Shown piece by piece: positions 1 to 14,946 of a DNA stretch of 64,000 nt. The notes under the pieces are model-generated. The model worked only from the letters and a program-made list of their open reading frames with translations, was not told where the DNA came from and ran no database searches. A program made the translations under genes and the position numbers. The stretch is from assembly GCF_055900595.2 (NCBI RefSeq), contig NZ_CM148325.1; one strand, 5' to 3'. Each line of letters opens with the position of its first letter. The stretch's first letter is position 1.

Positions 1-349
1 TCATAATCGCCATCACCAGCAGGACCCAGAAAATCAGCAGGCCGATGGTTTTCAGCAGAATCAATAAACCGGCAATCCAAATGATTGGCAGGAAGGTCAC
101 CACTTTAAACAGCACGATGGCTTTAATGAAACTGAGAATATAGGCAACCAGCAGCGAGGCGCTATCAATGGGGCCCATTGCCGGAATAACGCGGCGCAGT
201 GGCCCGATAATCGGCTGCGTTACCTTCACTACAAACTGTGAGAAGGGGTTGTAAAAATCACAATGAGCCCACTGCATCCAGATGCGTAATAACAGCACCA
301 TGGTATACAGCTCAATGACCGTTGAAAGCAGGAAAGTCAACGTATTCAT
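1..349 (-). CDS. yggT: YggT-family integral membrane protein, N-terminal part only; gene runs off the window start
   Basis: Minus-strand ATG at 347-349; translation MNTLTFLLSTVIELYTMVLLLRIWMQWAHCDFYNP... stays open to position 2. Absent from ORF track because there is no in-window stop. Confidence 0.85.
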   Translation of the reverse strand, partial: MNTLTFLLSTVIELYTMVLLLRIWMQWAHCDFYNPFSQFVVKVTQPIIGPLRRVIPAMGPIDSASLLVAYILSFIKAIVLFKVVTFLPIIWIAGLLILLKTIGLLIFWVLLVMAIM

Positions 350-366
350 GGCGTTCCTTTAATTCC

Positions 367-1071
367 TTATTTTTTAGAGTAATCACGCGCACCAAAAATT
401 GCAGTGCCGATACGAACCATCGTGCTACCTGCCGCAATGGCGGCTTCCATATCGTCCGACATTCCCAGAGAGAGCGTGTCGATATGCGGGTAGCGCGTTT
501 TCAGTCCGGCAAATGCTACAGCCATTTGGCGTGCAACTTCAAACTGCCTTACATATTCTGACTCAGGCGCAGGGATTGCCATCAGCCCGCGCAGACGTAA
601 ACGCGGTAGTTCAGCGACCGCAGCTGCCAGCTCGTCCAGTTCAGCCAGTTGAATCCCGGACTTACTGTTTTCATCACTAATGTTAATTTGAATCAGTACG
701 TTAAGAGGGGGAAGTTCTGCCGGGCGCTGGTCGTTCAGACGGGTAGCGATGCGCAAACGGTCGATGGTATGACACCAGTCGAAATGCTCTGCCACCAGGC
801 GGCTTTTATTAGACTGCAACGGGCCAATAAAATGCCATTCTAATCCTGTTACGCCCAGTTCCTGAAAGTGGCGAATTTTATCTACCCCTTCCTGAACGTA
901 GTTTTCACCAAATTGACGCTGCCCGGCATCAATGGCTTCTGCGATGGCGCTCGCAGGTTTTGTTTTACTGACTGCAAGCAGCGTAATTTCTTCTGGAGAA
1001 CGGCCGCAACGCGTTGCAGCCGCTGAGATTTTGTCCCGGACCTGTGCCAGGTTATGCGCAATATCGTTCAT
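367..1071 (-). CDS. yggS: PLP-homeostasis protein YggS (234 aa)
   Basis: ORF-track protein matches my recollection of YggS full length; sits between yggT and yggR as in E. coli. Confidence 0.93.
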   Translation of the reverse strand: MNDIAHNLAQVRDKISAAATRCGRSPEEITLLAVSKTKPASAIAEAIDAGQRQFGENYVQEGVDKIRHFQELGVTGLEWHFIGPLQSNKSRLVAEHFDWCHTIDRLRIATRLNDQRPAELPPLNVLIQINISDENSKSGIQLAELDELAAAVAELPRLRLRGLMAIPAPESEYVRQFEVARQMAVAFAGLKTRYPHIDTLSLGMSDDMEAAIAAGSTMVRIGTAIFGARDYSKK

Positions 1072-1088
1072 TTTCCGAGGATCTTAGT

Positions 1089-2069
1089 ATGAATATGGAA
1101 GAAATTGTGGCCCTTAGTGTAAAGCATAACGTCTCGGATCTACACCTGTGCAGCGCCTGGCCCGCACGATGGCGCATTCGCGGGCGAATGGAAGCTGCGC
1201 CGTTTGATGCGCTGGACGTCGAAGAGCTACTGCGGGAGTGGCTGGATGACGATCAGCGGACAATATTGCTGGAGAATGGTCAGTTGGATTTTGCTGTGTC
1301 GCTGGCGGAAAACCAGCGGTTGCGTGGCAGTGCGTTCGCGCAACGGCAAGGTATTTCTCTGGCATTACGGTTGTTACCTTCGCACTGTCCACAGCTCGAA
1401 CAGCTTGGTGCGCCACCGGTATTGCCGGAATTACTCAAGAGCGAGAATGGCCTGATTCTGGTGACGGGGGCGACGGGGAGCGGCAAATCTACCACGCTGG
1501 CGGCGATGGTTGGCTATCTCAATCAACATGCCGATGCGCATATTCTGACGCTGGAAGATCCTGTGGAATATCTCTATACCAGTCAGCGATGTTTGATCCA
1601 ACAGCGGGAGATTGGTTTGCACTGTATGACTTTCGCATCGGGATTGCGGGCTGCATTGCGGGAAGATCCTGATGTGATTTTGCTCGGAGAGCTGCGTGAT
1701 AGCGAGACAATCCGTCTGGCGCTGACGGCGGCAGAAACCGGGCATCTGGTGCTGGCGACATTACACACGCGCGGCGCAGCGCAGGCAGTTGAGCGACTGG
1801 TGGATTCGTTTCCGGCGCAGGAAAAAGATCCCGTGCGTAATCAACTGGCAGGTAGTTTACGGGCGGTGTTGTCACAAAAGCTGGAAGTGGATAAACAGGA
1901 AGGACGCGTGGCGCTGTTTGAATTACTGATTAACACACCCGCGGTGGGGAATTTGATTCGTGAAGGGAAAACCCACCAGTTACCGCATGTTATTCAAACC
2001 GGGCAGCAGGTGGGGATGATAACGTTTCAGCAGAGTTATCAGCAGCGGGTGAAAGAAGGGCGCTTGTGA
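1089..2069 (+). CDS. yggR: PilT-like type IV pilus retraction ATPase YggR (326 aa)
   Basis: Track ORF trimmed by 25 codons to ATG at 1089 (MNMEEIVALSV...); Walker A GATGSGKST visible. Confidence 0.9.
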   Translation: MNMEEIVALSVKHNVSDLHLCSAWPARWRIRGRMEAAPFDALDVEELLREWLDDDQRTILLENGQLDFAVSLAENQRLRGSAFAQRQGISLALRLLPSHCPQLEQLGAPPVLPELLKSENGLILVTGATGSGKSTTLAAMVGYLNQHADAHILTLEDPVEYLYTSQRCLIQQREIGLHCMTFASGLRAALREDPDVILLGELRDSETIRLALTAAETGHLVLATLHTRGAAQAVERLVDSFPAQEKDPVRNQLAGSLRAVLSQKLEVDKQEGRVALFELLINTPAVGNLIREGKTHQLPHVIQTGQQVGMITFQQSYQQRVKEGRL

Positions 2070-2097
2070 CGTTGCTGTGTCTGATACGAATTGTAAA

Positions 2098-2200
2098 TAT
2101 GCCCGATGCGCAAGCTTATCGGGCCTACAAGGGAAGCGTAACTTTGAATTCGCACTCACTGTAGGTTGGATAAGGCGTTTACGCCGCATCCAACATGAAA
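2098..2200. repeat. REP/BIME palindromic units
   Basis: gcccgatgcgcaagcttatcgggcctaca and inverted tgtaggttggataaggcgtttacgccgcatcc match the REP consensus family; convergent gene ends on both sides. Confidence 0.7.
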
Positions 2201-2242
2201 CAACGAGCACATTGTCAGAAATCTGTGCGCTAGTAAATCGCC

Positions 2243-2659
2243 TTAATATCCCTGCTCGAAATAGCTTTCGAGAATAATAACCGCAGAGGCAGAGTCGACT
2301 TTGCCTTTGTTGAGCGCCCGATAGCCGCCCTGTTCAAACAGACCGGAACGTGCCTCCACGGTGCTAAGACGCTCGTCATGGAGCTTTACTTCAACACCGA
2401 AACGACCATGAATACGGTTGGCAAATTTACGCGCTCTGGCGGTTAACGGCTGTTCGGTGCCGTCCATATTCAGCGGCAAACCGACGATGATTTCGTCCGG
2501 CTGCCACTCTTTCAGTAAACGCTCGATAATGTTCCAGTCCGGCGTACCGTCCTGCGCTTTAATTGCAGGCAAAGGGCGAGCGGTGCCGGTAATGCGTTGG
2601 CCGACCGCTACGCCAATGCTTTTGGTGCCGAAGTCGAAGGCGAGTAAGGTTCCACTCAT
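2243..2659 (-). CDS. ruvX: Holliday-junction-resolvase-like RNase RuvX/YqgF (138 aa)
   Basis: Track ORF trimmed to [20 protein letters not shown]...; start overlaps yqgE stop by 1 nt. Confidence 0.9.
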
Positions 2660-3222
2660 CAGGCGTGTCCTGCCACACCAGGCATGGTGAGAATATCCAC
2701 ACCAATCAGTTTTGCCGCCTCGCGCCAGCGGTCGGCAATCGGCGTTTTGAACAGAATATTCAGATCTGCCGGGGCCGTTAGCCACGCGTTATCGAGAATT
2801 TCTTGTTCCAGTTGACCTTTCTCCCAGGAGGCATAACCCAGAGCCACCAATACGTCAGACGGTTGTTTATCGGTGCCGAGCGTTTCCAGCACATCGCGGG
2901 AAGTGGTCATCACTGTGTTGTCTGAAATGCGAATGCTGGAAGCAAAATTGGAAGGCGGAGTATGCAAAATAAACCCGCGATCTTCAGCCAGCGGACCGCC
3001 GAGCATAACCGGTTTATCCAGACGGATTGATTCATCACGCGGCTCCGGCGTGATCTTCAGCTTTTCCAGAATCCCTTCAATTTTGAGATTTTCCAGCGGC
3101 TTGTTGACGATGATCCCCATTGCACCATTGGTATTATGTTCGCAAATGTAGACCACGGAACGACGGAAAATCGGATCCTGGAGAGCAGGCATGGCAATAA
3201 GAAAGTGATGCTGTAAATTCAT
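2659..3222 (-). CDS. yqgE: YqgE/AlgH family protein (187 aa)
   Basis: Track ORF trimmed to [17 protein letters not shown]...; cat at 3220-3222. Confidence 0.88.
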
Positions 3223-3330
3223 TGTCAGAGGTTCTGTTTCCTGGTTCAAAAAAGCAACAGCGCCCAGTATGCGTGGAAAGAAGGGCGCTGTCACTCAGAG
3301 TCTCAACGAGATCCTTCTCGCTAAGGTGGG

Positions 3331-4281
3331 TTACTGCTGCTGTAAACGTGCTTCGATGGCATCCATTAACATTCCGGTAATCGACACCGGAAACTCTGCT
3401 TCAATCTCACGAATACAGGTTGGGCTGGTGACGTTAATTTCAGTCAGACGGTCGCCGATGATATCCAGACCAACAAAAATCAGCCCTTTTTCTTTCAGCG
3501 TCGGCCCAATCTGACGGGCGATTTTCCAGTCACTTTCCGTCAGCGGACGAGGTTCACCGCGACCACCGGCAGCCAGATTGCCACGGGTTTCGCCCCCCTG
3601 CGGAATACGCGCCAGGCAATACGGCACCGGCTCGCCATCCACTACCAGCACGCGTTTGTCGCCATCTTTAATGGCTGGCAGGTAATTTTGCGCCATGCAG
3701 TAGCGAGTGCCATGCTCAGTCAGGGTTTCGGCAATCACGCCGAGGTTTGGATCACCTTCTTTCACGCGGAAAATCGACGCGCCGCCCATACCGTCCAGCG
3801 GCTTAAGAATGATGTCGCTGTGTTTTTCCCAGAAAGCTTTTAGCTGCGCTTTATTGCGTGTGACCAGCGTTTCTGGTGTTAAGTCAGAGAACCAGGCAGT
3901 GAACAGTTTTTCGTTACAATCGCGCAGGCTCTGCGGCTTGTTAACGATCAGCGTCCCTTTATCTTCGGCACGTTCCAGAATATAGGTCGAGTAGATAAAC
4001 TCGGTATCAAACGGCGGGTCTTTACGCATCAGGATCACATCGAGATCGGCCAGCGGCAGATCCTGCTCACCCGTGAACTCGTACCATTTATCGTAGTTCT
4101 GTTCGACGCTCAAAGTACGGGTACGAGCGCGAGCCTCACCATTGATCAAATAGAGATCGGCCATCTCCATATAGTGAAGTTCGTAACCACGACGCTGTGC
4201 TTCCAGCAACATAGCGAAACTGGAATCTTTCTTGATGTTGATGTTTGCGATGGGGTCCATCACGATGCCGAGCTTGATCAT
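3331..4281 (-). CDS. gshB: glutathione synthetase (316 aa)
   Basis: MIKLGIVMDPIANINIKKDSSFAMLLEAQRRGYELHYMEM... matches GshB full length; ATP-grasp fold. Confidence 0.95.
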   Translation of the reverse strand: MIKLGIVMDPIANINIKKDSSFAMLLEAQRRGYELHYMEMADLYLINGEARARTRTLSVEQNYDKWYEFTGEQDLPLADLDVILMRKDPPFDTEFIYSTYILERAEDKGTLIVNKPQSLRDCNEKLFTAWFSDLTPETLVTRNKAQLKAFWEKHSDIILKPLDGMGGASIFRVKEGDPNLGVIAETLTEHGTRYCMAQNYLPAIKDGDKRVLVVDGEPVPYCLARIPQGGETRGNLAAGGRGEPRPLTESDWKIARQIGPTLKEKGLIFVGLDIIGDRLTEINVTSPTCIREIEAEFPVSITGMLMDAIEARLQQQ

Positions 4282-4293
4282 TATTCTTCTCCG

Positions 4294-5025
4294 TTAGCCC
4301 AAATCGCCAAAACGCACTTGTAGCGCGGTAATGGCGGTGAGCGCAGTTGTCTCAGTACGCAAAACGCGAGGTCCCAACAGGATATCAGTAAATTGATAGC
4401 GGGCAGTCATGGCAATTTCATCTGCCGATAAACCGCCTTCCGGGCCAATCAGCAGGCGGACGCGTTCGACCGGTAACGGCAACGTATTGATGCTGTTACT
4501 GGCGCGCGGGTGAAGATTCAGTTTCAGTCCTTCATCCTGCTCTGCACACCAGGCTTCCAGATCCATCGCTGGACGGATTTCCGGCACCCGGTTACGGCCA
4601 CACTGCTCACAGGCAGCAATTGCAATCTTCTGCCACTGCTGGAGCTTCTTGTTCAGACGTTCACTATCCAGTTTAACGCCGCAGCGCTCAGAAAAAAGTG
4701 GCGTAATGAGGCTTACACCGAGTTCGATCGATTTCTGGATAGTAAATTCCATTTTTTCACCACGCGACATCACCTGACCGAGGTGAATATGCAGCGGAGA
4801 TTCGCGATCGTCGATCTGGCCTTCCAGCACCTTCACTTCCACGCTTTTTTTGCTGGCGCTGGTAATTTCGGCGTCAAAGACCTGGTTGCTGCCGTCAAAC
4901 AATTGCAGCGCCTGTCCCGGCCCCATACGCAGTACGCGCCCGATATGGTTGGCGGCATCTTCGCAAAGCGCGATGTGAGAATGGCTGGTCAGTGGTTCAG
5001 GATGATAAATGCGGGGGATACGCAT
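4294..5025 (-). CDS. rsmE: 16S rRNA m3U1498 methyltransferase RsmE (243 aa)
   Basis: Track ORF trimmed 9 codons to [12 protein letters not shown]... Confidence 0.9.
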
Positions 5026-5045
5026 AGTTAAAAATCCGCGTCGTC

Positions 5046-5069
5046 TCCCCACGCGGTTGTACGCGTGGG
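5046..5069 (-). other. GC-rich hairpin between endA and rsmE
   Basis: ccccacgcg-gttgta-cgcgtgggg perfect 9-bp inverted repeat; a short T-run follows on the minus strand after about 10 nt. Confidence 0.3.
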
Positions 5070-5104
5070 GTAGGGGTTAACAAAAAGAATCCCGCTAGTG
5101 TAGG

Positions 5105-5812
5105 TTAGCTCTTTCGCGCCTGGCAAGCGCGTTGCACATACGGGTTATGATTGCCCTGCACCTTCGCGATGCGTTCATCACGTTCGCACTCCCAGTCGGT
5201 AACTGGATACATCTTGTCCCATGCGTTGAACAGCTGCGTTTGCTGACGAGAGAGTGTCAGGTTGTATTGGTCACGCATATAGAAGTAGGTGCGCGCAATG
5301 GCACCGCGTGCACGCGCTGGTGGTTCGGCAACTTTTTCTTTGAAATCGACCTTCATGGCGCATTGACCGTACTGGCCTTCACCGCCATTCCACTGGCTGT
5401 ACATAAAGTTGCCGCGATCGCCATTCACCTCACCGACTGACGGCTGCAGGTTATGCATATCGCTTTCCATCTTGCGATAGACCGGATCTTTGGCGCAATT
5501 TTTACGTCCACCGTCCTGCCAGCACTGGCGCTGGTGACCGAATTGCCAGGCAGGAACGACGTGTTCCCACTCTACGCGGCTGGCACGGTTTTCATTTTTT
5601 CGCACCTGATAGCCGCACGATTGCAGATCAACAACGCCTTTTTTGCCCTGCCAGTTAATTTTACATCCGCAATAAAACGTACCGGGCGCGTCAGCGTGGA
5701 CTTTTACCGCCGCGGCTTTCGCTTGAGAAAAACTATTGATACCTTCGGCCAATGCCGGGCCGGAAAATGCTGTGCTCAGTACCACCGCAGCAATAGACAA
5801 ATAACGGTACAT
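5105..5812 (-). CDS. endA: periplasmic endonuclease I (about 235 aa)
   Basis: [22 protein letters not shown] signal peptide then conserved EndA body; start taken at the second Met of the track ORF, so start is uncertain by one codon. Confidence 0.9.
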
Positions 5813-6480: not shown

Positions 6481-7875
6481 TTAATCGTGAGCGCCGATTT
6501 CGCGCAGTTTACGACCTTTCATCAGATTACGTTCAATATGTTCCAGCGAAACGTGTTTGGTTTCCGGTACCAGCCACAATGTCAGCAGGATAAACAGTAC
6601 GTTCAGAGCAGCATACACCCAGAAGGTGTTGGCGTTACCCAGCGTGTTGAGCATGGTCAGGAACGTTGCGCCAACGATCATGTTGGCAATCCAGTTGGTG
6701 GCAGTGGAGCAGGTGATGCCAAAATCGCGGCCTTTCAGCGGCTGAATTTCGGAGCACAGTACCCAAATCAGCGGACCGGCACTCATGGCAAAACCGACAA
6801 TAAACATCAGCAGCATGGCGATGGCGAAATACTGCGCCGACGGAGAGTGGATACCGATATGCATCATTGTACCGAGTACGCCCATACCAGCAGCCATCAC
6901 CAGGAAGCCCAGCGTTAGCGTTGGTTTACGTCCCCAGCGGTCAACAAGGCCGATTGCGATAAAGGTGGCAAGTACGTTGGTCAGGCCGACAATCACTGTC
7001 CCCCACATTTGCTCGGTGGTGTTGGTATAACCCGCCAGTTCGAAGATTTTCGGCGCGTAATACATGATGACGTTCATCCCGGTGAATTGCTGCATTACCT
7101 GCAATAGTACGCCAAGGAACACCGCGCGGCGGAAGTTGCTATTCTCTTTAAACAGCGCCCAGCCACTCTGTTTAACCTGCAAACTTTCACGGATTTCATC
7201 CAGTTCGCGTTTCGCTTCCGCGCTGGTGTCACGCAGGCGTAGCAGCACGCGTTCGGCATCAACAAAACGGCGTTTGGCGGCAAACCAACGTGGGCTGTCT
7301 GGCAGGAAGAAGACACCAATCAGCAGCAAAATTGCCGGGATGATAATCACACCCAGCATCCAGCGCCATGCACCGGTGTAGCTGAAGGCGGTATCAGAAA
7401 GATAAGCGCCGAGGATCCCGATAGTGATCATCAACTGATACATCGAGATCATACTGCCGCGAATTTTTTCCGGCGCAATTTCTGACAGGTACAGTGGTGC
7501 GGTATAAGAGGCCACACCCACCGCCAGCCCCAGCAGAACGCGGGAAAGAATCAGTACTTCAACGTTTGGCGCAGCCGCAGAGAACAGTGAACCGGCAACA
7601 AACAGGATTGCGCCGATCATCAGGCTCTTTTTGCGCCCGAGTTTAAAGGAGAGCCAGCCGCTGCCCACCGCACCGACTGCCGCACCGAACATCATGGAGC
7701 TTACGACCCATTCTTGCGTGTGCGAAGTAATCTGGAATTCATCTGCAATAAACGGCAGTGCGCCAGCAATTACACCGATATCCAGGCCAAAGAGTAATCC
7801 CGCCAGAGCGGCAAGGAAGCAGACGAAAAACGTCATTGCCTTGTTTGACCGCCCCTGTTTTTTAGCGTCAGGCAT
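6481..7875 (-). CDS. galP: galactose:H+ symporter, MFS sugar porter (464 aa)
   Basis: Track ORF trimmed to [24 protein letters not shown]...; 12-TM MFS layout. Confidence 0.95.
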
Positions 7876-8250
7876 GATGCCCTCCAATATGGTTATTTTT
7901 TATTGTGAATTAAGATAGGTGAGTACGACGTAAAAAGATGTGAAGCAAATCACATCAGTGTAATCGCTTACACTAACATTTATCTTAGTTATGATTTAAG
8001 TGCATGAAAATAATTGAGTTATATCATCATAGATTAAAGGTTGTTATCTGCAATTAAGACTTTACTGAAAAGAAATGTAACAACTGTGAAAGCTGAATAA
8101 TAATATGAAAATATTACAAATATTTGGCTGGTGTGGTTGGTGTAATCGATTTCAGTAGTGATGATAATTTGCGGTAAAACGTGTTGAGGAAGAATGATGT
8201 TATTGTGCGGGCGGTTTTTTGCCGGATGCGGCGTGAACGCCTGTCCACTG
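7876..8250 (-). promoter_or_regulatory. AT-rich galP upstream control region
   Basis: Long AT-rich spacer upstream of galP; the known galP promoter region of E. coli lies here. Individual operator sites not mapped. Confidence 0.4.
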
Positions 8251-8257
8251 CGGTGAG

Positions 8258-8290
8258 GTAAAAGAAAAAGGCCAGCGCGAGGCTGGCCTT
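8258..8290 (-). terminator. metK rho-independent terminator
   Basis: Minus strand reads aaaggccagcctcgcgctggccttt followed by tttcttttt, immediately 3' of the metK stop. Confidence 0.65.
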
Positions 8291-8310
8291 TGAAAGCAGG
8301 TGAAGAAAGA

Positions 8311-9465
8311 TTACTTCAGACCGGCAGCATCACGCAGCAGCTGCGCTTTGTCGGTTTTTTCCCACGGGAAATGTTCACGACCAAAGTGACCGTATGCTGC
8401 GGTTTCTTTGTAGATCGGGTGCAGCAGATCCAGCATCTGAATCAGACCGTATGGGCGCAGGTCGAAGAATTCACGTACCAGCAGAGTCAGTTGTTCAGAA
8501 GGCACTTTCTCAGTACCGAAAGTTTCTACCATGATGGAAGTCGGTTCAGCCACGCCGATTGCGTAGGAAACCTGAATTTCACAACGATCGGCCAGGCCAG
8601 CAGCAACAATGTTTTTCGCGACATAACGTGCTGCGTAGGCTGCGGAACGGTCCACTTTTGATGGATCTTTACCGGAGAACGCACCGCCACCATGACGCGC
8701 CATGCCGCCGTAGGTATCAACGATGATTTTACGACCAGTCAGACCGCAGTCACCCATCGGGCCACCGATAACGAAACGACCGGTCGGGTTGATGAAGAAT
8801 TTGGTGGCAGAAGTCAGCCATTCAGCGGGCAGAATCGGCTTGATGATCTCTTCCATTACCGCTTCTTGCAGCGATTTCTGGTCGATCTCTTCAGAGTGCT
8901 GAGTGGAAAGCACGACAGCATCAATGCCAACGATTTTGCCGTCGTCATACTGGAAAGTCACCTGGCTTTTCGCGTCCGGGCGCAGCCACGGCAGAGTGCC
9001 GTTTTTACGCACTTCAGCCTGACGCTGTACCAGACGGTGTGCATAAGTGATAGGTGCTGGCATCAGCACGTCGGTTTCATTAGTTGCGTAGCCAAACATC
9101 AGCCCCTGGTCGCCCGCGCCCTGTTCCAGCGGATCGGCACGGTCAACGCCCTGGTTGATGTCAGGAGACTGTTTACCGATGGCGCTCAGAACCGCACAGG
9201 AGTTAGCGTCAAAGCCCATGTCGGAATGCACATAGCCAATTTCGCGAACGGTATTACGGGTGATCTCTTCGATGTCTACCCAGGCGCTGGTGGTGATTTC
9301 GCCGCCAACTAAAACCATGCCGGTTTTTACGTAGGTTTCGCAAGCAACGCGTGCTTTCGGATCCTGTTCGAGGATCGCGTCTAAAACGGCATCAGAGATT
9401 TGGTCAGCAATTTTGTCAGGATGCCCTTCAGAGACGGACTCGGACGTAAAAAGGTGTTTTGCCAT
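8311..9465 (-). CDS. metK: S-adenosylmethionine synthetase (384 aa)
   Basis: Track ORF trimmed 4 codons to [18 protein letters not shown]... Confidence 0.96.
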
Positions 9466-9505
9466 ATTTAATATCACCTAAAGAGAATTTGGTTAGCTCA
9501 AACTG

Positions 9506-9772
9506 TTGTGTGGATTTTCTGTGGTAGCGGATCCTACCACGACTCTGCAGGTTAAAAACACTGGCAGTCTGAGTGTTAATCGGTATGGATGGATTAACAT
9601 CTGGATGGCTATTTTAGGTCAGTTCTTCACCCAATTTCCACTTTTTTTTGAATCGTGTCTCATTCTGTTAAAAACGTGGCTGGAAATTTTTCCTGACAAT
9701 GCTGGCATTCTGCGTATTTATCTTTTGCAATTTTCTGCCATTGTGGGGTATAAAACGCGGCGCGCGGCTTAA
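9506..9772 (+). CDS. yqgD: small ORF at the position of K-12 yqgD; coding status doubtful
   Basis: Track ORF in the metK upstream region; position and strand match the doubtful K-12 gene. No motifs. Confidence 0.25.
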
Positions 9773-9984
9773 ATAAAAAGCACACGACGTTTCTTTCGTG
9801 TTGCCACTTCCAGCCGGGTTGAAAACAGAGTTTTGGCTTGTGGGTTCGTCTTAACAGGCGGCCGTGGAGGTGATACGAAATAATGAACCGTTGTCTGCTG
9901 CTTAACCTGTCTCACCGTTCTGGTGAAGATTCGTTCCCCGCACTCTGCATCTCTGCTTTGCATACCTGCCGATGTTATACCCAT
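9769..9984 (-). CDS. yqgC: small ORF at the position of K-12 yqgC (71 aa); coding status doubtful
   Basis: 71-aa track ORF, same length, position and strand as K-12 yqgC as I recall it. Confidence 0.3.
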
Positions 9985-10119
9985 CTCGGCGCTTCTCAGG
10001 ATTCAAGAGCTGGTTACAGCTACTGAGGACTGAACAAGGGCGCTCTTGTAAAAACAAGAGTTTTCTCGTGGTTTCGCCGAACTGTCACACTTACGTTCGG
10101 TTATGTGCTTAATAATGTT

Positions 10120-10251
10120 ATGAAAAAGAAACCGGTTGCGCAGTTGGAGCGTCAGCATTCACTGCTGGAAAATCCATGTGCTTATGGGTTGTTATCGCAG
10201 TTCCAGGCTGCGATAGTCGTTAACTGTTTTACACTTAATAAAATAATTTGA
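10120..10251 (+). CDS. yqgB: small acid-stress protein YqgB (43 aa)
   Basis: ATG at 10120; [43 protein letters not shown], immediately upstream of speA. Too short for the ORF track. Confidence 0.65.
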
Positions 10252-10259
10252 GGTTCGCT

Positions 10260-12236
10260 ATGTCTGACGACATGTCTATGGGTTTGCCTTCGTCAGCGGG
10301 CGAACACGGTGTACTACGCTCCATGCAGGAGGTTGCAATGAGCTCCCAGGAAGCCAGCAAGATGCTGCGTACTTACAATATTGCCTGGTGGGGCAATAAC
10401 TACTATGACGTTAACGAGCTGGGCCACATCAGCGTGTGCCCGGACCCGGACGTCCCGGAAGCTCGCGTCGATCTCGCGCAGTTAGTGAAAACTCGCGAAG
10501 CACAGGGTCAGCGTCTGCCTGCACTGTTCTGTTTCCCACAGATCCTGCAGCACCGTTTGCGTTCCATTAACGCCGCGTTCAAACGAGCGCGGGAATCCTA
10601 CGGCTATAACGGCGATTACTTCCTCGTTTATCCGATCAAAGTTAACCAGCACCGCCGCGTGATTGAGTCCCTGATTCATTCGGGCGAACCGCTGGGCCTG
10701 GAAGCCGGTTCCAAAGCCGAGTTGATGGCGGTGCTGGCACATGCTGGCATGACCCGTAGCGTCATCGTCTGCAACGGTTATAAGGACCGCGAATATATCC
10801 GCCTGGCATTAATTGGCGAGAAGATGGGCCACAAGGTCTATCTGGTCATTGAGAAGATGTCAGAAATTGCCATTGTGCTGGATGAAGCAGAACGTCTGAA
10901 TGTCGTTCCTCGTCTGGGCGTGCGTGCACGTCTGGCTTCGCAGGGCTCGGGTAAATGGCAGTCCTCCGGCGGGGAAAAATCGAAGTTTGGCCTGGCGGCG
11001 ACTCAAGTACTGCAACTGGTTGAAACGCTGCGTGAAGCCGGGCGTCTCGACAGCCTGCAACTGCTGCACTTCCACCTCGGTTCGCAGATGGCGAATATTC
11101 GCGATATCGCGACAGGCGTTCGTGAATCCGCGCGTTTCTATGTGGAACTGCACAAGCTGGGCGTCAATATTCAGTGCTTCGACGTCGGCGGCGGTCTGGG
11201 CGTGGACTATGAAGGCACCCGTTCTCAGTCTGACTGCTCCGTAAACTACGGCCTCAATGAATACGCCAACAACATCATCTGGGCGATTGGTGATGCGTGT
11301 GAAGAAAATGGTCTGCCACATCCGACGGTAATCACCGAATCGGGTCGTGCGGTGACTGCGCATCACACCGTGCTGGTGTCGAATATCATCGGCGTGGAAC
11401 GTAACGAATACACGGTGCCGACCGCGCCTGCAGAAGATGCACCGCGCGCCCTGCAAAGCATGTGGGAAACCTGGCAGGAAATGCACGAACCGGGAACTCG
11501 CCGTTCTCTGCGTGAATGGTTACACGACAGCCAGATGGATCTGCACGACATTCATATCGGCTACTCTTCCGGCACCTTTAGCCTGCAAGAACGCGCATGG
11601 GCTGAGCAGCTTTATTTGAGCATGTGCCATGAAGTGCAAAAGCAGCTGGATCCGCAAAACCGTGCTCATCGTCCGATTATCGACGAGCTGCAGGAACGTA
11701 TGGCGGACAAAATGTACGTCAACTTCTCGCTGTTCCAGTCGATGCCGGATGCGTGGGGGATCGACCAGTTGTTCCCGGTTCTGCCGCTGGAAGGGCTGGA
11801 TCAAGTGCCGGAACGCCGCGCTGTGCTGCTGGATATTACCTGTGACTCAGACGGTGCTATCGACCACTATATTGATGGTGACGGTATTGCCACGACAATG
11901 CCTATGCCGGAGTACGATCCGGAGAATCCGCCGATGCTCGGTTTCTTTATGGTCGGCGCATATCAGGAGATCCTCGGCAACATGCACAACCTGTTCGGTG
12001 ATACCGAAGCGGTTGACGTGTTCGTCTTCCCTGATGGTAGCGTAGAGGTAGAACTGTCTGACGAAGGCGATACCGTGGCGGACATGCTGCAATATGTGCA
12101 GCTCGATCCGAAAACGCTGTTAACTCAGTTCCGCGATCAGGTGAAGAAAACCGATCTTGATGCTGAACTGCAACAACAGTTCCTGGAAGAGTTCGAGGCA
12201 GGTTTGTACGGTTATACCTATCTTGAAGATGAATAA
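10260..12236 (+). CDS. speA: biosynthetic arginine decarboxylase (658 aa)
   Basis: Track ORF (TTG-extended) trimmed to ATG at 10260, [20 protein letters not shown]... Confidence 0.96.
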
Positions 12237-12257
12237 TTAAGATTATTCTGCTGGCGG

Positions 12258-12300
12258 GGCGATTTATTTACGTAAATCGGCCCGCTTTCTTTTTATATAT
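12258..12300 (+). terminator. probable speA terminator
   Basis: gcggggcgattta...taaatcggcccgc imperfect hairpin followed by tttctttttat. Confidence 0.5.
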
Positions 12301-12318
12301 TCTTAAAAATAATTTAGC

Positions 12319-12327
12319 TGCTTTTCT
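12319..12327. repeat. IS1 target-site duplication, left copy (tgcttttct)
   Basis: Identical 9-mer abuts both IS1 ends. Confidence 0.9.
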
Positions 12328-12382
12328 GGTGATGCTGCCAACTTACTGATTTAGTGTATGATGGTGTTTTTGAGGTGCTCCA

Positions 12383-12658
12383 GTGGCTTCTGTTTCTATC
12401 AGCTGTCCCTCCTGTTCAGCTACTGACGGGGTGGTGCGTAACGGCAAAAGCACCGCCGGACATCAGCGCTATCTCTGCTCTCACTGCCGTAAAACATGGC
12501 AACTGCAGTTCACTTACACCGCTTCTCAACCCGGTACGCACCAGAAAATCATTGATATGGCCATGAATGGCGTTGGATGCCGGGCAACCGCCCGCATTAT
12601 GGGCGTTGGCCTCAACACGATTTTCCGCCATTTAAAAAACTCAGGCCGCAGTCGGTAA
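12383..12658 (+). CDS. insA: IS1 InsA (91 aa)
   Basis: [40 protein letters not shown]... zinc-finger N-terminus of IS1 InsA. Confidence 0.92.
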
Positions 12659-13080
12659 CCTCGCGCATACAGCCGGGCAGTGACGTCATCGTCTGCGCGG
12701 AAATGGACGAACAGTGGGGATACGTCGGGGCTAAATCGCGCCAGCGCTGGCTGTTTTACGCGTATGACAGGCTCCGGAAGACGGTTGTTGCGCACGTATT
12801 CGGTGAACGCACTATGGCGACGCTGGGGCGTCTTATGAGCCTGCTGTCACCCTTTGACGTGGTGATATGGATGACGGATGGCTGGCCGCTGTATGAATCC
12901 CGCCTGAAGGGAAAGCTGCACGTAATCAGCAAGCGATATACGCAGCGAATTGAGCGGCATAACCTGAATCTGAGGCAGCACCTGGCACGGCTGGGACGGA
13001 AGTCGCTGTCGTTCTCAAAATCGGTGGAGCTGCATGACAAAGTCATCGGGCATTATCTGAACATAAAACACTATCAATAA
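12577..13080 (+). CDS. insB: IS1 InsB reading frame (joined to InsA by -1 frameshift to give the InsAB' transposase)
   Basis: Track ORF with the IS1 InsB body (...[33 protein letters not shown]...); the 5' boundary of the track ORF is not a real start. Confidence 0.85.
12631..12639 (+). other. IS1 A6C-type -1 frameshift window (ttaaaaaac)
   Basis: ttaaaaaactc lies at the insA 3' end inside the insA/insB overlap. Confidence 0.6.
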
Positions 13081-13095
13081 GTTGGAGTCATTACC

Positions 13096-13104
13096 TGCTT
13101 TTCT
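13096..13104. repeat. IS1 target-site duplication, right copy (tgcttttct)
   Basis: Identical to 12319-12327. Confidence 0.9.
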
Positions 13105-13158
13105 TATTAAATAATCTCCCTACAATCGCTGCATTAATTAAATGCAGAGGGAACGGTT

Positions 13159-13890
13159 ATGAAAAAATGGAAAGTACGTAGCGCGTTGGTGGCATTAATC
13201 GTGCTGCTGGCTGGTTGTTCCAGTAATGCGCAGTATAATAGCAGTGCATCAGGCAATGTCGGCACCGCCTGGGGTGGGGATGTGCACTCAACGGTTCAGG
13301 GCGTATCTGCTGAACGAGCCTGGCGCGATCCGGCAGAGATGATCGTTATTAGTTATTCGACTAATGTTCCTTCCGGCTACGACCGCGTTTATAGCATTCG
13401 TATTAACGAACTGGAATATGCTATTCGCGATGGTAATTTTAATTCTCTACCTATTACGCGGGTTTATGATTCATCCAATAATGAACCACGCTATATTGTC
13501 CATGCCAGAGTCGGAATGAATTATCAATTATATGTCCGTAATTACAGTCGTAACACCAACTACGAGATCGTTGCTACGGTTGATGGCCTGGATGTGCTGA
13601 ACGGCAAGCAAGGTTCGCTGAATAACAACGGTTATATTGTGAATGCCGGAGATTCGTTAGCGATTAAAGGATTCCGCAAAGATAAACATACCGAAGCGGC
13701 TTTTCAGTTCGCCAACGTTGCTGATTCCTACGCAGCCAATTCGGCGCAAGGCGATGTGCGTAATACCGGTGTAATCGGCTTTGCCGCCTTTGAATTACAA
13801 GGCCCGGCGAAAAACGCGCTGCCGCCGTGCTCTGGACAAGCCTTTCCGGCAGATAACAATGGCTATGCGCCGCCACCGTGTCGGAAATAG
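13159..13890 (+). CDS. predicted lipoprotein, 243 aa, function unknown; not part of the K-12 speA-speB arrangement
   Basis: ATG at 13159 with upstream agagggaa RBS; N-terminus MKKWKVRSALVALIVLLAGCSSN has a signal peptide plus lipobox LAGC; Asn/Tyr/Ser-rich body; two Cys near the C-terminus. Confidence 0.7.
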   Translation: MKKWKVRSALVALIVLLAGCSSNAQYNSSASGNVGTAWGGDVHSTVQGVSAERAWRDPAEMIVISYSTNVPSGYDRVYSIRINELEYAIRDGNFNSLPITRVYDSSNNEPRYIVHARVGMNYQLYVRNYSRNTNYEIVATVDGLDVLNGKQGSLNNNGYIVNAGDSLAIKGFRKDKHTEAAFQFANVADSYAANSAQGDVRNTGVIGFAAFELQGPAKNALPPCSGQAFPADNNGYAPPPCRK

Positions 13891-13950
13891 CAACCTCGCT
13901 TGATGCCTCGCCCATTTAAGGCGATAATTAGCACAAACTTGTGTTTCACA

Positions 13951-13997
13951 AATCCAACCCTTCCTCGTCGGGCCTAACGACGCGGAAGGGTTTTTTT
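13951..13997 (+). terminator. strong hairpin plus T7 run about 30 bp upstream of speB
   Basis: cccttcctcgtcgggcctaacgacgcggaaggg followed by ttttttt. Confidence 0.55.
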
Positions 13998-14025
13998 ATA
14001 TCGACTTTGTAATAGGAGTCCATCC

Positions 14026-14946
14026 ATGAGCACCTTAGGTCATCAATACGATAACTCACTGGTTTCCAACGCCTTTGGTTTTTTACGCCTGCCGATGAAC
14101 TTCCAGCCATATGACAGCGATGCTGACTGGGTGATTACTGGCGTGCCGTTCGATATGGCCACTTCTGGTCGTGCGGGTGGTCGCCACGGTCCGGCAGCGA
14201 TCCGTCAGGTTTCGACGAATCTGGCCTGGGAACACAATCGCTTCCCGTGGAATTTCGACATGCGTGAGCGCCTGAACGTCGTGGACTGCGGCGATCTGGT
14301 ATATGCCTTCGGAGATGCCCGTGAGATGAGCGAGAAGCTGCAGGCGCACGCCGAGAAGCTGCTGGCTGCCGGTAAGCGTATGCTCTCCTTCGGTGGTGAC
14401 CACTTTGTTACGCTGCCGCTGCTGCGCGCTCATGCGAAGCATTTCGGCAAAATGGCGTTGGTACACTTTGATGCCCACACCGATACCTACGCTAACGGTT
14501 GTGAATTTGACCACGGCACCATGTTCTATACCGCGCCGAAAGAAGGTCTGATCGACCCGAATCATTCTGTGCAGATTGGTATTCGTACCGAGTTTGATAA
14601 AGACAACGGCTTTACCGTGCTGGACGCCTGCCAGGTGAACGATCGCAGCGTGGATGACATTATCGCCCAGGTGAAACAGATTGTGGGTGATATGCCGGTT
14701 TACCTGACCTTTGATATCGACTGCCTGGATCCTGCTTTTGCACCAGGCACCGGTACGCCGGTAATTGGCGGCCTGACCTCCGATCGCGCCATTAAACTGG
14801 TACGCGGCTTGAAAGATCTCAACATCGTTGGGATGGACGTAGTGGAGGTGGCTCCGGCATACGATCAGTCGGAAATCACCGCTCTGGCTGCGGCGACGCT
14901 GGCGCTGGAGATGCTGTATATCCAGGCGGCGAAAAAGGGCGAGTAA
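14026..14946 (+). CDS. speB: agmatinase (306 aa)
   Basis: [43 protein letters not shown]... full-length match to SpeB; aggagt RBS. Confidence 0.96.

Follow-up and report, generated by a model that had tools for sequence, protein, structure and literature searches.

Strains of Escherichia coli of the K-12 and BL21 type have a spacer of 137 nt between speA and speB, the genes for biosynthetic arginine decarboxylase and agmatinase. In the window analysed here, a stretch of 64,000 nucleotides from contig NZ_CM148325.1 of RefSeq assembly GCF_055900595.2, the gap from the end of speA at 12236 to the start of speB at 14026 is 1789 nt, and it holds an IS1 element and an intact ORF for a predicted lipoprotein. 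The initial annotation of the window had rightly set a gap of about 1.8 kb against a short K-12 spacer and had described the lipoprotein gene as inserted into that spacer. The question raised by this locus is whether the gene was gained in the window strain or lost from K-12, and what its product might do.

Identification of a constrained gene between speA and speB

The gene order in the window was metK (-), speA (+), IS1, the 243-aa ORF (+), speB (+), loiP (-) and tktA (+). The ORF was located at 13159..13890 on the + strand, with an ATG start and the stop codon included, and was flanked upstream by speA (10260..12236, +) and downstream by speB (14026..14946, +). The sequence of its product was that of RefSeq WP_000758911.1, a record named 'hypothetical protein', and the exact protein was found on at least 1000 public contigs, where it bore only the names 'hypothetical protein' or 'Lipoprotein'. 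Annotations under such names already exist in thousands of genomes, and the finding of the gene is not new.

Comparison with O157:H7 and with cryptic Escherichia clades gave dN/dS values of 0.06–0.07 (about 0.06 within Escherichia), and orthologues with 53–76% identity were identified in Salmonella, Citrobacter, Klebsiella, Kluyvera, Raoultella, Intestinirhabdus and Entomohabitans. Judged by these two properties of its sequence, the ORF is a genuine constrained gene, and a non-coding chance reading frame was rejected on the same grounds. Its G+C content was 48.5% and its GC3 46%, compared with ~55% and ~63%, respectively, for speA and speB, which agrees with the first impression by eye that it is AT-richer than its neighbours.

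Distribution of the gene and its ancestry at the locus

The whole gene was present at this site in 3550 of 5426 complete E. coli genomes; the K-12/BL21-type spacer of 137 nt was present in 1867, and about nine genomes had other arrangements. The gene-less share was ~34%, and the gene is thus strain-variable, as had been proposed. No intermediates between the gene-bearing and the K-12-type spacer were found among the 5426 genomes. Matches on plasmids were limited to 2 of 5437, which marks the gene as essentially chromosomal.

The order speA–gene–speB was also observed in E. whittamii, in two cryptic-clade Escherichia, and in Citrobacter, Klebsiella, Kluyvera, Enterobacter, Kosakonia, Phytobacter, Intestinirhabdus and Entomohabitans. 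For E. albertii we observed the gene followed by speB on a contig that ends upstream of the gene, and in Salmonella the gene lies directly after speA and is followed by an inserted sugar-utilisation island. Every other Escherichia species and clade recovered, and no fewer than ten enterobacterial genera, therefore carried the gene in this position. When dS was calculated against the cryptic clades, the values were 0.29–0.33 for the lipoprotein gene, 0.23–0.34 for speA and 0.13–0.24 for speB. Given this synteny across genera and dS values like those of the flanking genes, we interpret the presence of the gene as ancestral and the K-12/BL21 arrangement as a loss, which reverses the direction of the event assumed in the initial annotation. 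Our main reading, which we hold with a probability of roughly 0.85, is that speA and speB enclose an ancestral, vertically inherited, translated enterobacterial lipoprotein gene that has been lost from K-12.

The G+C content of the orthologues was 47.5–50% in most of the enterobacterial genera examined, with Enterobacter sp. L026 (56.6%) as the exception. Since low G+C is common to most of the enteric orthologues, it appears to be a long-standing property of the gene and need not be a sign of recent transfer. No integrase, tRNA or island boundary was detected at the locus, where the sole flanking repeat was the target duplication of IS1.

According to this reading, K-12, BL21 and about one third of sequenced E. 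coli lost the gene together with the terminator that follows speA. Further losses were represented by truncated forms attributed to Shigella dysenteriae and by the short clusters P0025, P0036 and P0056. We conclude that loss of the gene is tolerated and has happened repeatedly, and that retained copies are under strong purifying selection.

Compared with the window, the K-12 locus has the same flanks, the promoter-like hexamers before speB and an identical hairpin with its T-run, but it is without the speA-proximal terminator and the lipoprotein gene, and ~55 nt round the speB promoter-like site form a diverged haplotype. A clean excision would not have produced the K-12-type spacer, because the ~55 nt beside the deletion are only ~60% identical between the haplotypes; the gene-bearing version of this stretch is nearly invariant across Escherichia. 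The divergence of the two haplotypes was weighed against a simple account of the loss.

IS1 insertion upstream of the gene

The IS1 element (12328..13095, 768 bp) carries insA/insB on the + strand, and its terminal inverted repeats were located. It is bounded by a 9-bp target-site duplication, TGCTTTTCT, with the left copy at 12319..12327 and the right copy at 13096-13104. The uninterrupted target site is present in O157:H7, and the identical IS1 junction was found in 3 of the 5426 complete E. coli genomes (U1, 28Eco12 and CUVET20-PYO4). The annotated layout of 28Eco12, a urine isolate, is that of the window, with the element labelled as IS1B-family. From its own target duplication and its occurrence in three genomes it follows that IS1 came later and independently of the gene. 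The insertion is recent, clone-specific and unrelated to the origin of the gene, and the possibility that the lipoprotein gene is a passenger borne by IS1 was rejected.

IS1 lies 63 nt before the start codon of the lipoprotein gene and occupies the -35 position of a putative promoter; the target duplication restores the 9 bp that adjoin the -10 element. In the window strain, the insertion would therefore part the gene from the AT-rich DNA upstream and leave the ORF intact.

Transcription and translation signals

A Shine-Dalgarno sequence, GAGGG, is located at 13147..13151 (+), 7 nt before the ATG, so the gene has its own RBS, as first described, and a purine-rich AGGGA/AAGGA at this position is conserved across genera. 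Alignment of the spacer across genera further revealed a -10-like hexamer, TACAAT, preceded by a C (13121..13126, +), as part of a putative own promoter for which the -35 is weak only. The gene probably has its own promoter, possibly one of stationary-phase type, to judge from the conserved hexamer. Between the hexamer and the start codon, the 5' leader contains a perfect 7-bp inverted repeat, CTGCATT-AATTA-AATGCAG (13129..13147, +), which abuts the Shine-Dalgarno sequence; it was found in Escherichia only and is missing from the other genera.

An intrinsic terminator, consisting of a hairpin followed by CTTTCTTTTT, was identified after speA (12253..12296, +; dG -22 kcal/mol, z -4.1). This terminator is confined to genomes carrying the lipoprotein gene, and its stem is preserved across genera by compensatory changes. 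The gene would thus form a small transcription unit of its own, composed of the speA terminator, a weak promoter with a conserved -10, the Shine-Dalgarno sequence and the ORF. The gene had been described as sitting inside a polyamine biosynthesis operon: its place between speA and speB is as stated, whereas the conserved speA terminator and the gene's own -10 element make 'operon' a loose term here.

Between the lipoprotein stop codon and the next hairpin, we found a sigma-70-like site, TTGATG-17 nt-GATAAT (13900..13928, +), with hexamers that are conserved in other genera as well as in the K-12-type spacer; this site is probably the speB promoter. The hairpin, which is GC-rich and followed by seven T, lies in the speB leader at 13956..13999 (+), 66 nt past the lipoprotein stop (dG -28.4 kcal/mol, z -5.5). 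It is nearly invariant across genera and unchanged in K-12-type genomes without the lipoprotein gene. The strong hairpin and T-run reported behind the gene are therefore present; since they are kept in gene-less K-12 types, they are a shared element of the speA/speB region and not the private terminator of the lipoprotein gene. Both terminators were established by folding, and a scan for consensus promoters and terminators detected neither. An Rfam scan of 12150-14150 returned no family and one sub-threshold chance match on the speA terminator.

Protein features and structural model

The signal peptide (residues 1-19) and the L-A-G-C lipobox are encoded at 13159..13218 (+), with the Cys20 codon at 13216-13218. 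The N-terminus reads MKKWKVRSALVALIVLLAG followed by C, with Ser-Ser at +2 and +3 after Cys20, and the segment MKKWKVRSALVALIVLLAG-C20 contains the basic n-region, the hydrophobic h-region and the lipobox [LVI][ASTVI][GAS]C that characterise lipoproteins. Cys20 was unchanged in 40 of 40 aligned family members. As for outer-membrane lipoproteins sorted by the Lol system, Asp is absent from +2, where the enteric orthologues have Ser or Ala; the Ser at +2 predicts outer-membrane sorting and no more. The intact 243-aa ORF with a lipoprotein signal (LAGC, Cys20, Ser at +2) is in this respect exactly as initially annotated. The protein resembles Lol-sorted outer-membrane lipoproteins such as LpoB, MliC and YcfL/DUF1425 in its LAGC lipobox, its invariant Cys and the lack of Asp at +2, and further resembles that class in having a flexible tether with a small beta-rich domain and in being encoded by a stand-alone gene that is dispensable in the laboratory.

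The mature protein comprises 224 aa, with 10.7% Asn, 6.2% Tyr and two cysteines near the C-terminus, Cys224 and Cys241, in accordance with the Asn/Tyr-rich body and C-terminal Cys pair reported earlier. The segment Cys224-Cys241 (13828..13881, +), delimited by alignment, surrounds the tail motif AFPAD-x-GYAPPP and falls within a region of predicted disorder (pLDDT <50 at 221-243). The tail motif was family-wide in the 40-sequence alignment; the flanking Cys pair is a feature of most enterobacterial and a few other members and is missing from the greater part of the family. In most enterobacterial members, the pair probably forms a disulphide around the tail motif. The same alignment showed invariant or near-invariant positions at GTxWGE, R53, Y66, Y122, N128, S130, YEIVATVDGLDV, GY, GFRK, AAFxF, YA and NxGVIGxAxF, and the invariant polar residues were T36, W38, R53, N128, E136, D142, D145, R173, K174 and N202. 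Among distant family members, some have Pro/Ala-rich tethers of 100-150 residues and a few are circularly permuted.

An AlphaFold2 model built from the 40-sequence family alignment (mean pLDDT 80.5, pTM 0.75) predicted an all-beta core at residues 33-220, with a disordered tether (21-30) and a disordered tail (221-243). No close solved fold was found for this model. It resembles DUF7918 and related beta-sandwiches in the AlphaFold DB, which are mostly fungal, as well as MATH/TRAF-like sandwiches, with no Pfam sequence match to any of these. DUF7918-type proteins belong to another kingdom and compartment and are themselves uncharacterised, and so the resemblance carries no functional information.

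Family size and genomic context

A full HMMER scan of 1.84 billion representatives placed the protein in a family of ~4300 clusters at 50% identity with E <=1e-3, of which 3316 were recovered at E <=1e-10. Beyond the orthologues, homologues with ~35-45% identity were found in Providencia, Proteus, Gilliamella, Neisseria, Kingella, Pseudomonas, Acinetobacter, Moraxella, Burkholderiales, Rhodobacterales and beyond. A Pfam search with the query and 40 family members gave no match at E <=0.001, NCBIfam gave signal-peptide-level noise only, searches of the PDB by sequence and by profile gave no match, and neither the PADLOC defence profiles (no match) nor PHROGs (no significant match) recognised the protein. 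The reading as a phage or defence gene was rejected. Every relative listed was without a Pfam domain or an informative name, and a profile search of a 5.8-billion-protein set revealed no domain fusion or informative name among the 120 matches listed. The family is large, proteobacterial and uncharacterised, and the statement that the protein could not be placed in a characterised family held against all five resources. The initial annotation had named, as evidence that would speak against it, a well-characterised protein encoded here in most E. coli lineages: the gene is at the locus in most genomes, and the protein is not characterised.

Analysis of the neighbourhoods of ~95 loci yielded no universal gene partner; synteny was lineage-specific, and the family genes tend to be co-oriented with, and wedged between, housekeeping genes. 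In ~30 loci of the Comamonadaceae, the order was hisD–gene–(Rap1a-like ORF)–hisC–hisB, and the tight spacing, with overlap of some genes, indicates that the gene lies within the his operon there. The ORF downstream of these homologues encodes a secreted protein of 120-130 aa, and 15 of 15 scanned matched Pfam Rap1a (T6SS amidase immunity), with a best E of 3.8e-6; this neighbour is limited to 23 loci of the Variovorax/Acidovorax type. Elsewhere, the gene was found in the order metJ–gene–ompX-like–rpmE in Providencia, where metB is also near, adjoining ahcY in Ralstonia, and next to thrS/recO in Gilliamella, mltG in Neisseria, plc in P. aeruginosa PA7 and sucAB in other genomes. One metagenomic homologue lies directly 3' of a VgrG-DcrB-PAAR/Rhs-immunity module, and no T6SS or effector genes were detected near family members in the other ~95 loci.

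Proposed function and alternative explanations

By the rules of lipoprotein sorting, the protein would be exported by Sec and then lipidated on Cys20 by Lgt, LspA and Lnt, and the Ser in place of Asp at +2 would direct its delivery to the outer membrane by Lol. A flexible tether (residues 21-32) would there lead to the compact all-beta domain (~33-220) and on to the disordered, Pro-rich tail with AFPAD..YAPPP. We give somewhat better than even odds to a function as a non-enzymatic binding module, anchored in the outer membrane and facing the periplasm. Such a module would bind a protein or an envelope ligand via the invariant polar residues of the beta core and the tail motif; as far as residue conservation goes, the invariant polar residues could equally form a catalytic or small-molecule site. 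As to what is bound, an endogenous envelope partner is a tentative suggestion, which we favour slightly over inhibition of, or immunity to, incoming envelope-targeting enzymes. The absence of a conserved gene partner across taxa was weighed against an endogenous ligand.

The inhibitor or immunity explanation, which we consider unlikely, holds that the gene encodes a protective inhibitor or orphan immunity lipoprotein, the periplasmic beta domain of which would neutralise an envelope-targeting enzyme such as a T6SS effector, a lysozyme-like enzyme or a bacteriocin, by a logic analogous to that of MliC/PliC or the Tai/Tsi immunity proteins. It is suggested by the Rap1a-matching secreted ORF that follows the gene in the 23 Variovorax/Acidovorax-type loci and by the metagenomic homologue beside a VgrG module; the failure to find a conserved endogenous partner, the repeated loss of a dispensable gene (K-12-type E. 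coli, Shigella dysenteriae truncations, short clusters) and the strong purifying selection on retained copies are also consistent with it. However, the other ~95 loci are without a nearby effector or T6SS gene, PADLOC was negative, Rap1a-like neighbours occur in one family only, and a fixed chromosomal slot across whole families is atypical for orphan immunity genes. Neither a cognate effector nor a defence locus or profile was found that would assign the protein to T6SS immunity or defence.

Both the T6SS immunity proteins of the Rap1a/Tai4 type (PF18602) and the lipoprotein are secreted, periplasmic and without enzymatic motifs, and in Variovorax and Acidovorax the gene directly downstream of the lipoprotein family belongs to the Rap1a family. 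The lipoprotein shows no sequence similarity to Rap1a, its gene has no cognate effector nearby, and the association is missing in enterics and most other taxa. A fuller version, in which the gene is the E. coli member of a ~4300-cluster family overlooked because K-12 deleted it, and in which the beta domain and tail counter envelope-targeting toxins in the periplasm, as an inhibitor or immunity factor, seems to us more doubtful still.

Returning to the window strain, IS1 could have silenced the ORF and left a decaying gene, a pseudogene in the making. The position of IS1 at the -35 of the putative promoter, the displacement of the AT-rich DNA upstream and the dispensability of the gene in many lineages would all allow this. 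We nevertheless regard it as improbable: the ORF is intact and its product identical to the protein on at least 1000 contigs, the 9 bp beside the -10 element were regenerated by the target duplication, IS1 is co-oriented with the gene so that read-through is possible, and dN/dS indicates long-term constraint.

Lower yet do we rate a metabolic link, in which the ligand that the lipoprotein binds or senses in the envelope would be agmatine, putrescine or some other cationic metabolite derived from amino acids; such a role would account for the retention of the gene amid two successive genes of a pathway. Consecutive pathway genes enclose the gene in two unrelated lineages, as speA-X-speB and as hisD-X-hisC (~30 Comamonadaceae loci), with spacing in Comamonadaceae tight enough for co-transcription, and the metJ/metB neighbours in Providencia and ahcY in Ralstonia could be taken in the same sense. 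These pathways (polyamine, histidine, methionine/SAM) differ, though, and no single metabolite connects them; many members occur in unrelated contexts such as thrS/recO, mltG, plc and sucAB, and in enterics a terminator stands between speA and the gene. Polyamine synthesis in K-12 is normal without the lipoprotein gene, and this was also counted against the link.

Least credible of all is the insertion into the speA-speB spacer of a gene for a strain-specific surface protein, gained by horizontal transfer, as G+C and GC3 below those of the neighbours, absence from K-12 and 34% of E. coli genomes and the adjoining IS1 might suggest, because every Escherichia outgroup and enterobacterial genus recovered has the gene at the site, its dS agrees with the values for speA and speB, most enterobacterial orthologues examined share the low G+C, IS1 arrived later and plasmid copies are almost absent. 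The more general possibility of a horizontally acquired islet was rejected, since we found neither absence from sister species nor signatures of mobility (integrase, tRNA, bounding repeats, plasmid or phage copies).

Implications

The ancestral enterobacterial speA–speB locus, on our main reading, has an extra lipoprotein gene, probably transcribed separately, and the K-12 arrangement, which serves as the textbook reference, is derived. What had been taken for an insertion in the window strain is thereby corrected to a deletion in K-12. The gene is a fair candidate for functional work: it is strongly constrained, widespread in Proteobacteria, present in O157:H7 and in urinary isolates, and missing from laboratory strains. 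If the protein were indeed an envelope-protective factor, it would represent a new family among periplasmic inhibitors.

Two haplotypes and the possible leader of speB

Two discrete haplotypes were found at the speA–speB locus in E. coli, and no intermediates between them were detected among 5,426 E. coli genomes. The K-12 type, in which a 137-nt spacer separates the two genes, differs from the gene-bearing type not only in being without the lipoprotein gene (13159-13890, + strand) but also in the sequence preceding speB. When the corresponding segment of a K-12-type locus (L002, 3442-3520) was compared with window positions 13891-13950, the haplotypes differed at approximately 40% of positions over a stretch of approximately 55 nt surrounding the promoter-like site of speB. 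Despite this divergence, the promoter-like hexamers were retained in the K-12-type segment, as was a small hairpin built from different bases (CCGCT..AGCGG versus CGCC..GGCG).

The region upstream of speB (13900-13999) has a conserved arrangement, in which a conserved sigma-70-like site (TTGATG-17 nt-GATAAT) is followed approximately 30 nt downstream by a very stable hairpin and seven T residues, located approximately 27 nt upstream of the speB start codon. This order was kept across enterobacterial genera and in K-12-type genomes. A terminator-like hairpin placed directly after a promoter points to a leader or attenuator, or else to a short RNA of approximately 65 nt. An Rfam search returned no family matching this promoter-hairpin region.

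Sequences upstream of the lipoprotein gene

A perfect 7-bp inverted repeat (CTGCATT-AATTA-AATGCAG, 13129-13147), found in Escherichia only, lies immediately next to the lipoprotein gene's Shine-Dalgarno sequence and could serve as an operator or as a hairpin masking translation. Further upstream, IS1 (12328-13095), flanked by a 9-bp target duplication and oriented in the same direction as the lipoprotein gene, is located at the -35 position of the gene's putative promoter. The identical junction was present in only 3 of the 5,426 complete E. coli genomes. In several further genomes, such as LY180 and DS26-1, IS1 has inserted elsewhere within a few hundred bp, a pattern suggesting that the AT-rich spacer is a locally preferred IS1 target.

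Genomic contexts and circularly permuted members of the family

In Salmonella (L003/L004), the lipoprotein gene remains with speA and is separated from speB by an inserted island (6886-12732) that encodes a GntR regulator and a sugar-alcohol dehydrogenase. On a metagenomic contig (L096), a VgrG-DcrB-PAAR/Rhs effector-immunity module (1-5740) lies directly upstream of a family member with 39% identity, with sucAB adjoining. In a Variovorax/Acidovorax-type locus (L008, 6844-7233) and 22 others, a gene for a secreted Rap1a-family protein of 120-130 aa, resembling T6SS amidase immunity proteins, occurs together with the lipoprotein homologue between hisD and hisC, inside the histidine biosynthesis operon. 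This is an odd placement for two periplasmic genes.

Two metagenomic members, P0256 and P0263, are circularly permuted versions of the lipoprotein family, in which the N-terminal GTxYGE...Y segment has been relocated C-terminal to the core domain, directly before the AFPAE..YAPPP tail. Since this segment adjoins the tail in the permuted sequences, their organization implies close proximity of the tail to the N-terminal strands in the family fold.
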